38,803 bases of DNA from Chitinivibrionales bacterium. Its GTDB lineage: Bacteria > Fibrobacterota > Chitinivibrionia > Chitinivibrionales > WJKA01. Positions 27,038 through 38,803 of the stretch are shown here, one piece after another. The position numbers and the translations under genes are program-made. The DNA lies in assembly GCA_038247415.1 (NCBI GenBank), contig JBBRUX010000038.1:1-38803 (forward strand), read 5' to 3'. The notes under the pieces were generated by a model. It ran no database searches, was not told the DNA's origin, and worked only from the letters and a program-made list of their open reading frames with translations. Within the stretch, counting starts at the first letter, position 1. Every line of letters starts with the position of its first letter.

Positions 27038-27079
27038 AGGCTCGCTGCGCAATACAATGTAAGTAAATTGTCTGGACCA

Positions 27080-27165
27080 TTGATTTATGTGATTACTTTG
27101 ATAAAGATGATTTTTAATTCAAAGACAGAAGCATTTTCATTAGTCAATGTAATCGTATAAATCAA
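27080..27165. repeat. Imperfect GATT/AATC-periodic palindrome between convergent genes; possible bidirectional terminator
   Basis: TTGATTTATGTGATTAC (27080-27096) and GTAATCGTATAAATCAA (27149-27165) are 15/17 complementary; resembles 38697-38785. Confidence 0.65.
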
Positions 27166-36526: not shown

Positions 36527-37480
36527 CTATACATCATACAAGAACACATCTGTATTGCCTTCGGCAGAAATGGGAGAATCGTTGATTGCCACATAGTTCA
36601 TGTCTGATAATCGTACAATGCGAGGCTGAGGCAAACCTTTTGCAAAAAAACCTTCTTTGTAAACCGACATGGTAAGATAATCGCGCTGTGGCATCCACCT
36701 AAGGCTTTCATGAAAGCAATCGGGATCTAAAACCTTCGGCACCAAACTTGTTCTCAGCAACTCTTTGTCGTGTTTGTCGACAATCCTAATCTGCTGATGC
36801 GCTTCGATATCGCCATTGGTATACAAAACATCATAGCTACCGTCTCGTGCTATGGTTGGCCAACACCCATTAATGGCAAATTTTGTAATAGATTTGCTTG
36901 CTACTTCCATAATGCCTAAATCGTTATAATTTGGAAACCCGCCAGCCATATATTTGCCATCAGGCGACATAGACGCCCAGCACGTAGATCCAGCCCACTC
37001 AGGACGAGCCCAGGTTACCTTGACAATTTCTATTTTTTCGCTTGGATTATCGATGTTTATTTGATACAGAGACGAAGGAGCATCAAGCGCATCTTTTGCT
37101 TCCGATGCAAAAACCCATTGTTTGCCATCGGGGGTTGCAAAGCAATGTCCATCGCCATCGAAACCCTCTGCAATACACCGTTTGTTTTTTCCATCAAAGT
37201 CAATAACATATATTTTCCGCTGGTCATTATCGGTAAAGGTAATGCGTTTTCCATCCCAGGTAAAGCTTGCTGCAGAAAAGTGGGATCCATCGGTTTTTGG
37301 AACAAGTTCACGTACTATACCGTCTGCCGAATCTAAAACTTTAAGCGAATTTGGCACTCCCCTATCAAAATTTGGCTTACGCCCATCTGCACCCTCTACT
37401 TGCCAAACAACCCGCGCACAGGTATGAGCTCCCAGTAGTGATTTGAACTCTGAAATCAGTTGCTCTGGCTTTTTTGCCAT
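36527..37480 (-). CDS. TolB-like beta-propeller (PD40-type) protein
   Basis: SFTWDGKRITF...IYVIDFDG and SMSPDGKYM repeats. Confidence 0.6.
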   Translation of the reverse strand: MAKKPEQLISEFKSLLGAHTCARVVWQVEGADGRKPNFDRGVPNSLKVLDSADGIVRELVPKTDGSHFSAASFTWDGKRITFTDNDQRKIYVIDFDGKNKRCIAEGFDGDGHCFATPDGKQWVFASEAKDALDAPSSLYQINIDNPSEKIEIVKVTWARPEWAGSTCWASMSPDGKYMAGGFPNYNDLGIMEVASKSITKFAINGCWPTIARDGSYDVLYTNGDIEAHQQIRIVDKHDKELLRTSLVPKVLDPDCFHESLRWMPQRDYLTMSVYKEGFFAKGLPQPRIVRLSDMNYVAINDSPISAEGNTDVFLYDV

Positions 37481-37643
37481 ACAAAAGGCCCCATATTTTA
37501 AAATGAGTTTGAAGTTTTCTTTTGAACGTAATGATTAAAAATACTCATCTGCAATTTAAATGGCTAAGCATTTTGGACTAAATTTATATAAACACAATCT
37601 TGGATCTGGATCTTACAAGTCCGATTCTGGGCGCCCAACGTAG

Positions 37644-37809
37644 GAATTAATTATGGTAATCGCATAATCCTTGTAATCATGTTCAGGCCCCTCTCATGTC
37701 AAGAGCATTAACCAGAACTCAAGCATGAAAGCAAAACGGAGTGAATCACTCAGTCTTGAATGCCTCAGGCACGAAGTACCGCAGGGCATGAAAGACCGGC
37801 AGGCAAAGC
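37644..37809 (+). repeat. Left copy of a ~165-bp structured non-coding repeat, inverted relative to 38574-38738
   Basis: First 76 nt are 71/76 identical to the reverse complement of 38663-38738; ungapped similarity continues over the next 80 nt (54/80). Confidence 0.9.
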
Positions 37810-37843
37810 CCCGTTCTTGTTTGTATTATATTTTTTTGATTCA

Positions 37844-38107
37844 TCACACTAATTCCCATCTCCCATTTTTCTCTATTTCCTTATACATTGCATCGGGAGC
37901 TAGATCCACTTCACCGGGCCACTCAACAAAACCATTTTCGCAATCGACTTGAGAGAATATTTCGGGTTTTTTTAGAACTTCAAAGACACCCTTTAAGTGG
38001 CTTTCCTTGAATATCACTTCGCCTTGAAGTCCATCACGAAACCTGATACTCAAACGTAAATGACCGACCGCTATTACTTGTACAACATCGTAATTCATAA
38101 GATTCAC
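37844..38107 (-). CDS. DUF2442-family protein (putative antitoxin)
   Basis: LSIRFRDG...VFEVLK.PEIF.QV...VEWPGEVDLAPDAMY; overlaps the DUF4160 stop (GTGA). Confidence 0.85.
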   Translation of the reverse strand: MNLMNYDVVQVIAVGHLRLSIRFRDGLQGEVIFKESHLKGVFEVLKKPEIFSQVDCENGFVEWPGEVDLAPDAMYKEIEKNGRWELV

Positions 38108-38364
38108 TCCAATGGGCTAATCCGTTTAGGCGGTTGCTTGCTGATGCACAATTCCCAATCTGCACGTAATTCATTCCGATGCATCGCAGCCCATTCAAAA
38201 ACCAGCCCAATGACACGATTAGGAAGGTGTCCCTCTACTATTTCGAGCGTATCAATGGCTATTTTTGCTTTGAATTCGCCATATTCCGCATGAAAATGCG
38301 GTGGCGCATGGTCATCATAAAACATGCGGATAAATATACCGAAAAACATAGAAATAGTTGGCAT
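38104..38364 (-). CDS. DUF4160-family protein (putative toxin)
   Basis: MPTISMFFGIFIRMFYDDHAPPHFHAEYG...EWAAMHRNELRADW; RBS AAGGA. Confidence 0.9.
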   Translation of the reverse strand: MPTISMFFGIFIRMFYDDHAPPHFHAEYGEFKAKIAIDTLEIVEGHLPNRVIGLVFEWAAMHRNELRADWELCISKQPPKRISPLE

Positions 38365-38573
38365 TTTACATCCTTAATTTAAACAGCGTTTATCTATAAA
38401 GATACAATAACTACGCTTGGAATATTTATATATTACGAATTGGAAATGTGCATACCCATATTTTAAAAAATAAATCTACACTACTTTCTGAATATGGGTG
38501 CCGAACTAATAAATTCATACAATCTGAATCTGGGCGCCACGGTTGCCACCGTCGGCCCTTCTTACGTGCTCTT

Positions 38574-38738
38574 GCTTTCCAACCTGTCTGTCAAGCCCTG
38601 CGGTGCTTTGCACCTTGGTCTTTCCAGACTGATAGACTCACGCTGTTCATCCATCACACTCCAGTCCTGGCTAATGCTCTTGACATGAAAGGGGCCTGAA
38701 CATGATTACAAGGATTATGCAATTACCATGATTAATTC
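38574..38738 (-). repeat. Right copy of the ~165-bp structured non-coding repeat
   Basis: Reverse complement aligns to 37644-37809; its outer part is also the left arm of a GATT/AATC palindrome extending to about 38785. Confidence 0.9.
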
Positions 38739-38803
38739 GGACAGAAATCAAGATCATAAAGGTAATCATGTGAATCAAGGTTCAAATAGTTGACTTTTGC
38801 GCC

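Follow-up and report, generated by a model that had tools for sequence, protein, structure and literature searches.

The hairpin flagged at positions 37753-37796 of the window (the whole stretch of DNA that was analysed, 38,803 nucleotides long) is helix P4 of a dispersed, proliferating family of intergenic elements. The folded element measures about 150-210 bases and comprises eight helices (P1a, P1b, P2, P3, P4, P4b, P5, and P7). The genomes that carry it belong to an uncultured, little-studied order of the Fibrobacterota and have dozens of copies each. Its copies share one fold, which is more stable on one strand than on the other, and they differ in occupancy between orthologous loci. The reading that we prefer, and in which we place about as much belief as doubt, is that of a proliferating non-autonomous element whose sense strand must fold and which is probably transcribed into a structured RNA.

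The window locus and the architecture of the element

The two hairpins described in the earlier note, at 37753-37796 on the plus strand and at 38629-38586 on the minus strand, read exactly as given there, and both lie inside a 163-nt inverted repeat (37644-37806 and 38576-38738) whose arms are 79% complementary. In the pairwise alignment of the arms, the three compensatory changes that had been listed are found again (T37757-A37792 to G-C, T37761-A37788 to A-T, and A37771-T37777 to G-C), as is the broken pair of the left copy, C37770.A37778. At the column of 37778, the family as a whole has G as its consensus, and most other metagenome contigs show an A>G change at this position. The tandem G.A mismatch, on the other hand, is not invariant as had been supposed: one subfamily has G.A at alignment columns 65-66/98-99, and in most other subfamilies the unpaired G.A-type positions are columns 69-70/94-95 (non-standard in 20 and 25 of the 37 copies). 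Similarly, the C(GAA/AAA)G triloop is constant within the window's own genome in its closing C-G pair but variable in its loop, where GAA, GCA, TTT, AAA, and others are found. Nor is the hairpin free-standing; it is one arm of the eight-helix fold.

The fold was derived with RNAalifold and by inspection of an alignment (A2) of the 37 full-length copies from the window's own genome (G000; 99 contigs, 3.84 Mb, 96% complete). The element consists of a short leader, a core of ~155 nt (~210 nt with an optional domain), and a T-rich tail of ~25 nt. In P1a, five bases near the 5′ end pair with the five bases just before a near-invariant CCA, the end reading GCCCA. The 3-bp P1b comes next and is separated from P2 by a conserved, purine-rich internal loop, AGGAC.G.A opposite G.AAGGAGG. 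P2, with 4 bp and a conserved U.G among them, is the closing helix of the four-way junction that it forms with P3, P4/P4b, and P5; P3 has 6 bp and, in the own genome, a loop of 11-13 nt (AAACGGAGUGA), and P5 has 5 bp and a GAA triloop. The P7 hairpin is placed between the 3′ strands of P1b and P1a. The optional domain adds ~55 nt in 11 of the 37 copies, at a single defined point between P2 and P1b.

The lengths of P3, P4b, and P7 differ among genera, and several unpaired segments are conserved across them, namely AGG..GGAC.G.A opposite G.AAGGAGG, ACCGG, GAGC, and GCCCA. The ~25-nt tail past GCCCA (RAWTCTTATGCATTTATTCTT) belongs to the element, with TCTTAT being 31-fold enriched there. The covariance model of the family, R1, has 154 model positions and 42 base pairs in the eight helices. 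At one locus of a relative (L067:1300-1460, genome G023), a 3′ module of ~45 nt, made up of P7, the 3′ strand of P1a, CCA, and a 20-nt tail, stands three times in tandem.

In the window, the left copy (37697-37810, plus strand; nhmmer positions 2-114 of 136) is a decayed, 3′-truncated fragment. It ends after P5, is devoid of P7 and of the 3′ strands of P2, P1b, and P1a, and has a decayed P3; contigs of other copies part from the window sequence at 37800-37810, and the covariance-model match at 37699-37858 scores 76 bits vs 134 bits for the right copy. Its flagged hairpin combines P4, the outer stem with the tandem G.A pairs, and P4b, a 5-bp stem with a GAA triloop. The leader of this copy (37644-37696, plus strand), itself cut on the 5′ side, is ~95% identical to the leader of the right copy, represents half of the central region, a conserved stretch of ~110 nt found between the partners of head-to-head pairs elsewhere, and matches positions 110-276 of a composite unit on another contig of the same genome (C24:27040-27530). 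It is abutted by an isolated 3′-end remnant in the opposite orientation (GGGCGCCCAGAATCGGAC, 37617-37640, minus strand, a direct repeat), and comparable inverted remnants lie upstream of copies on C79, C13, C23, and C9.

The right copy (38531-38683, minus strand) has a complete core, from the 5′ strand of P1a to GCCCA, and is matched over model positions 1-154 with 134.4 bits (E 9.2e-29). Its P4/P4b constitutes the second flagged hairpin (38586-38629, minus strand). The conserved T-rich 3′ tail, GATTCAGATTGTATGAATTTATT..., follows at 38505-38530 (minus strand), where unrelated contigs diverge at 38504-38527, and an isolated second 3′-end remnant (GGCACCCATATTCAGA, 38487-38502, minus strand, a direct repeat) is located downstream of it. 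On the other side of the copy, 38684-38803, to which no strand is assigned, holds the central region of a head-to-head pair and the first bases of a plus-strand partner copy, which is cut off by the contig end at the right edge of the window. Accordingly, window positions 38562-38795 match positions 99-333 of the composite unit on C24. The two genes of the toxin-antitoxin (TA) pair are neighbors outside the element, both on the minus strand: a DUF2442 gene of 87 aa at 37844-38107 (PF10387, E 1.8e-9) and a DUF4160 gene of 86 aa at 38104-38364 (PF13711, E 4.7e-21).

Two further features of the window can be mentioned here. A lone fragment of ~50 nt at 27062-27113, between two ORFs, is ~81% identical to part of the central region, and a 317-aa ORF at 36527-37480 (minus strand) has no Pfam match at E ≤ 0.001.

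Covariation and strand specificity

Support for the fold comes from A2 and from a second alignment, A4, which contains 49 distinct sequences from other genomes of different genera and was fitted to the model, a procedure that favours the structure. Standard pairs account for 90.0% of the cells in A2 and for 94.1% in the model-fitted A4. When the 3′ partners are slid by 1-3 columns, the paired fraction is 32.1-41.8% in A2 and 36.4-42.6% in A4 (model-fitted). The number of cells with a double change is 262 in A2 vs 18-46 with slid partners, and 411 vs 37-85 in A4, again as fitted to the model. Compensatory changes are found in 23 of the 42 pairs in A2 and in 35 of 42 in the model-fitted A4, and the observed score was attained by none of 500 shuffles in A2 and by none of 500 in A4. 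The covariation of the hairpin, which the earlier note had proposed from two copies, is thereby confirmed with 37 own-genome copies, where the pairing lies far above both the slid-partner and the shuffled controls.

For the flagged hairpin itself, the helix at columns 60-71/93-104 of A2 is 83.7% paired, with both sides changed in 6 of 10 pairs, and the helix at 75-79/84-88 is 98.4% paired, with both sides changed in 2 of 5. In A4, with its sequences fitted to the model, the three helices of the hairpin are 97.4%, 78.0%, and 96.1% paired, and all 15 of the 15 pairs have changed on both sides. The variation is of the same type elsewhere in the fold: P1a occurs as GCAUU/AAUGC, GCGUC/GGCGC, GCACG/CGUGC, and GCGUA/UACGC, P2 occurs as GG/CC, GU/AC, AU/AU, and AG/CU, and several pair types are present in each of P1a, P2, P4, P5, and P7 in A4.

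The sense strand is the more stable of the two with RNA parameters in 35 of 37 own copies and 45 of 50 relatives, and with DNA parameters in 36 of 37 and 48 of 50, respectively. The U.G wobble of P2 is retained in 34 of 37 own copies and in 40 of 49 relatives. Both results agree with the earlier proposal that selection acts on the structure and does so on one strand. The eight-helix covarying fold thus has comparative support on par with that of many accepted RNA classes, yet it stands outside Rfam.

Copies, arrangement, and turnover

A BLAST search with the left arm gives 23 matches in the own assembly, an iterated nhmmer profile gives 59, and the covariance model gives 66 at E ≤ 0.01. All own-genome copies are intergenic, lie in either orientation, and are spread over dozens of contigs. 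Contigs often end within copies; C15, C69, and C81 stop at the identical base, and no continuation past this shared endpoint is present among the assembly contigs. In the source sediment metagenomes, the contig depth summed across the copies exceeds that of the flanks, from several-fold up to about 30-fold. The element accounts in this way for many of the contig breaks of its own assembly.

At least 10 head-to-head pairs are present in the own genome, with gaps of 59-162 nt and the conserved ~110-nt central region, along with one tandem pair. The layout seen in the window is found again on C24, C16, C65, C28, and C39, and it recurs in the relatives G034 and G032 and on one metagenome contig. 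Such a head-to-head arrangement is what would be expected for divergent transcription units. Next to one of the pairs (C28:50000-50290 of the own genome), an adjoining ORF contains an extended stretch of CTTCAATCTTCCC-type repeats.

A second, isolated 3′ end is located 25-50 nt after 6 of the 37 own copies, and several copies of G034 have the same arrangement. The nhmmer profile finds truncated copies of both kinds in the own genome, that is, ~10 copies truncated at the 5′ side together with small 3′-end remnants, as well as copies truncated at the 3′ side. Within subfamilies, stem deviations from the cluster consensus have kept the pair in 68 cases and broken it in 69, and positions have changed at a rate of 6.15% where paired and 8.04% where unpaired. 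Single copies thus decay almost freely, and it is the subfamily-founding lineages that have kept the fold. From this near-neutral decay, it seems that the majority of copies are dispensable as individuals.

The family is found only in a single order of the Fibrobacterota, where its distribution is patchy. Model R1 matches 12 of 41 genomes including the own one, and hence 11 of 40 relatives; the element is present in none of the six genomes of the same family and in five of the six of the genus g8. In a sample of the phylum, 15 of 151 genomes (the own one included) carry it, all of them belonging to this order. G034 has 67 model matches, and three further genomes have at least 20 each; in total, ~400 copies can be located with R1. 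When one genome per species was scanned for an exact pattern, 15 loci emerged, of which the model confirms four, all in Fibrobacterota/Fibrobacteres records. One of these coincides exactly with a locus of G012, which is from the same order as the window, and the window is thereby placed in the Fibrobacterota. A match in a Chloroflexus record (16.5 bits, E 0.0057) was taken as chance. The same type of scan gave one locus in viral contigs, which the model does not confirm, and 30 loci in metagenome contigs, of which five are confirmed, all on contigs too short to reveal a partner gene.

Turnover of the element can be followed in genus g8, where occupancy differs at both of the two orthologous loci examined. 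At the first, G034 has an intact copy, G016 and G027 have degenerate ones, and G008 has none; at the second, the copy of G034 is again intact, while G016 and G008 lack one. At one locus, an isolated 3′ remnant corresponds to the 3′ terminus of an older copy, degenerate but still present in a sister species. In the case of the window locus, no empty form was found among the contigs of four metagenome DNA runs.

Relation to known families and nature of the folding molecule

Rfam 15 gives no match for the whole window and only two irrelevant ones for 37300-38803 at E ≤ 10. For eight loci with copies from five genera, a single sub-threshold match was obtained at E ≤ 0.5, to the Twister-sister ribozyme (RF02681), with 25.5 bits vs a cut-off of 34 and at one of the eight loci (about ten copies). 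Twister-sister is likewise a four-way-junction RNA, and the ...GGCGCCCA of one copy aligns to its GGCGCUCA; however, the alignment deletes P3 and leaves the SL4 loop unmatched, and we regard it as a partial resemblance of a single copy. ARAGORN predicts neither tRNA nor tmRNA genes at 37000-38803. The accessible parts of the literature searched contain no description of such a repeat or RNA in Fibrobacter or the Fibrobacterota, and the word "undescribed" in the earlier note thus holds as far as Rfam 15 and this literature reach. A dispersed, folding, non-autonomous intergenic repeat is a known kind of element, whereas its 155-210-nt, eight-helix form with ~60 copies is new to both.

The closest parallels are found among the bacterial repeats. 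REP, BIME, and REPIN repeats, which are thought to be moved in trans by RAYT transposases, are also dispersed between genes in tens of copies, fold on one strand, form inverted doublets, and are patchy among relatives. However, REPs are single hairpins of 20-40 nt, whereas the present element is a closed eight-helix fold of 155-210 nt, the doublets of which are head-to-head with a conserved spacer of ~100 nt. An assignment to the REP/REPIN-RAYT systems was rejected, as unit length and shape differ, no link to a RAYT is seen, and the inverted doublets are the one diagnostic trait that is found. Bacterial MITEs such as Correia/NEMIS, ERIC, RUP, and BOX fold as RNA mainly through their terminal inverted repeats. 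Like them, the element is non-autonomous, multi-copy, intergenic, present in either orientation, and turned over between strains, but its fold is internal and multi-branched, with long-range helices that covary. As to the terminal inverted repeats and target-site duplications expected of a DDE-type MITE, TTGGCGC in the g8 leader by eye resembles the reverse complement of the GCGCCCAA end, in a comparison of species that are only 70-83% identical.

With integron attC sites, the element has in common that structure is conserved more than sequence; attC sites also fold as DNA on one strand, often measure ~60-140 nt, and often lie near TA cassettes. They are single imperfect hairpins with RYYYAAC/GTTRRRY core sites, set in one-orientation arrays beside an integrase. 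This assignment was discarded, since the element ends in GC(N)3 ... GCCCA and its copies are on dozens of contigs and on both strands. IS200/IS605 ends, PATEs, and the TnpB omega-RNA are similar in having strand-specific subterminal structures and in being multi-copy and ~150-250 nt long. IS200/IS605 elements depend on the lagging strand. Of the 33 solo copies of our element, 13 have their sense strand on the G-rich strand, a proportion no different from chance; orientation does not follow GC skew, and there is no sign of such a lagging-strand dependence.

The co-occurrence of an HUH or recombinase partner, suggested in the earlier note, was checked for hand-picked protein families with a negative outcome. 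The own genome has no match to the TnpB domain (PF07282) and a single Y1_Tnp gene (327 aa, C19:51846-52826), which is far from every copy. This family has no match in G034, with its 67 copies of the element, while the protein is present in all six of the same-family genomes that are without the element. Considering also that no match to the Rfam families IS605-orfB and HEARO was obtained, we do not classify the element as IS200/IS605-derived (PATE). The Y1_Tnp protein is expanded in some relatives, e.g., with 15 matches in G035.

A SINE-like retroposon would call for an intact reverse transcriptase in the genome. The only RVT_1 match in the own genome (C5:47318-47725) covers profile positions 97-205 in a 182-aa frame and is a degenerate fragment with the C-terminal half of the domain only. 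With no intact reverse transcriptase seen in this genome, whose 96% completeness may still hide one, an RNA-mediated spread would have to proceed without a visible enzyme. The 5′-truncated copies that this route would leave are seen alongside 3′-truncated ones.

Concerning regulatory roles, the downstream gene has the same sense as the copy in 26 cases and the opposite sense in 29 in the own genome (20 vs 22 in relatives). An all-against-all comparison of the ORFs flanking about 100 copies yields no recurrent neighbor protein, only spurious frames across the element. A riboswitch or cis-regulatory leader, one form of the regulatory RNA put forward earlier, is therefore unlikely. Annotators might nevertheless mistake the element for regulatory hairpins of a neighboring gene, as with the TA pair here. 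The best sigma-70-type promoter candidate, located in the central region, agrees at 9 of 12 positions; none better is assignable to the copies, and a scan for intrinsic terminators gave none that fits them. In several subfamilies and genera, AT-rich, -10-like hexamers can be made out by eye at 8-16 nt upstream of P1a, the signal being weak.

Most hairpin loops are C(GNA)G triloops, frequently within the exact heptamer GCGAAGC, in P5, P7, and P4b and across genera. In P5, C(GAA)G is found in 26 of 37 own copies and in 19 of 50 relatives, and in P7, GCGAAGC is found in 12 of 50 relatives; GNRA tetraloops are rare. According to a 2026 review (PMC13037366), GCGNAGC is an extraordinarily stable DNA mini-hairpin, the RNA version of which is much less stable, and such mini-hairpins are known from the plasmid ssiA signal and from the single-strand origins of phages. 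In the same review, single-strand initiation signals and G4-type origins appear as multi-hairpin folds of ~100-150 nt with C(GAA)G mini-hairpins (PMC13037366), which the element resembles; those, however, are single phage or plasmid sites, while the element has ~60 chromosomal copies in both orientations.

The dominance of these triloops in three separate hairpins makes a role as single-stranded DNA a serious rival to an RNA. The fold would in that case serve as the site recognized by a DNA enzyme acting in trans, be it a transposase or a recombinase, that mobilizes or uses the element, or as a priming signal of the primase type, and the element would be a structured MITE/REPIN-like DNA repeat that needs no transcript, both of which we consider possible but on the doubtful side. 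Such a role is consistent with the tandem G.A pairs, with the greater stability of the sense strand under DNA parameters too, and with a behavior that is mobile-like (presence or absence at orthologous loci, truncated and nested copies, inverted doublets), and it would account for the decay of single copies, the missing gene-orientation bias, and the failure to recognize a promoter or terminator. What makes us hesitate is that the searches described above found no partner enzyme and no sign of lagging-strand dependence, and that known transposon ends, REPs, and attC sites are all far simpler than this closed junction of eight helices with its optional domain. The closed multi-branched architecture, the modular inserted domain, the length-variable peripheral helices, and the conserved U.G are RNA-like traits, and we hold an RNA to be about as likely as not. 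An alternative in which each copy is under selection and works as a small RNA gene in its own right, with a regulatory or catalytic role, the family having been enlarged by duplication, appears quite unlikely to us. The products could be protein-sponging RNAs, tRNA-like RNAs with a 3′-CCA, or self-cleaving ribozymes. The conserved unpaired segments and the slightly lower change rate of paired positions would fit, P7 with the 3′ strand of P1a and CCA resembles, in our own reading, an acceptor/T-arm minihelix, and the sub-threshold Twister-sister match aligns GCCCA to the 3′ internal loop of the ribozyme. Individual selection is, however, difficult to reconcile with the numbers of broken and kept stem pairs within subfamilies, with the many truncated copies, and with the differing occupancy of orthologous loci and the absence of the element from all genomes of the same family; the tRNA and ribozyme forms are further disfavored by the ARAGORN result and by the score and missing parts of the Twister-sister match.

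The proposal that the arms are a local feature of the TA cassette, either as repeats that invert or mobilize it or as the cis-regulatory leader or terminator of the DUF4160/DUF2442 pair, is highly improbable. In its favor, the two copies converge on the gene pair from either side, at a distance of 769 nt from each other, and the right copy does lie upstream of the operon in the same sense. Yet about 57 other copies are beside unrelated genes, only one of the four DUF4160 loci in the own genome has copies nearby, the left copy is a truncated fragment, and no inverted form of the window occurs among metagenome contigs, which can drop rare variants. The TA pair is thus a bystander, and the inward orientation of the hairpins stressed in the earlier note is incidental.

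Returning to the preferred reading of a transcribed, non-autonomous element, we infer that the folding molecule is RNA, that the copies are transcribed, and that the fold serves propagation. The element would be transcribed as a small structured RNA from candidate signals in the leader or in the shared region of the head-to-head pairs, the fold would be needed for whatever lets the element persist and multiply, and the individual copies may afterwards decay almost neutrally. If RNA, it would add a large and abundant structured class; if the fold is one of DNA, it would point to a mobilizing enzyme that is missed by the usual searches. It is also conceivable, albeit unlikely, that the element represents a new class of self-propagating structured nucleic acid, with a ~160-nt four-way junction and a tRNA-like closing helix ending in CCA, that either has a catalysis of its own (self-cleavage at GCCC/A) or is the substrate of an unrecognized enzyme. 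If so, its activity would have spread it to ~60 copies per genome, with the truncated copies and the remnants as by-products, and it would be a bacterial counterpart of SINEs or retrozymes or, alternatively, a case of ssDNA transposition that operates without an HUH enzyme.

Other repeats adjoin the element at a number of sites. Microsatellite-like repeats of 7-11 nt lie beside many copies (ATTCTTATTTT eight times, TTCTTG five times, and GTTGAAN eight times upstream in g8), for example just below 78491 on C3, just below 94326 on C9, and below 8401 on C81 of the own genome, and at L085 and L095:1700-1800. We considered such 3′ tails as a mark of reverse transcription and set this aside, because similar heptamers are present in an empty orthologous site (G008). 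A second, unrelated GC-rich repeat family (GGGGGAAGTTTCCCCC...) adjoins the element at two loci of G034 (L091:1247-1400 and L095:1798-1942) and has many copies in the g8 genomes G008, G016, and G037.
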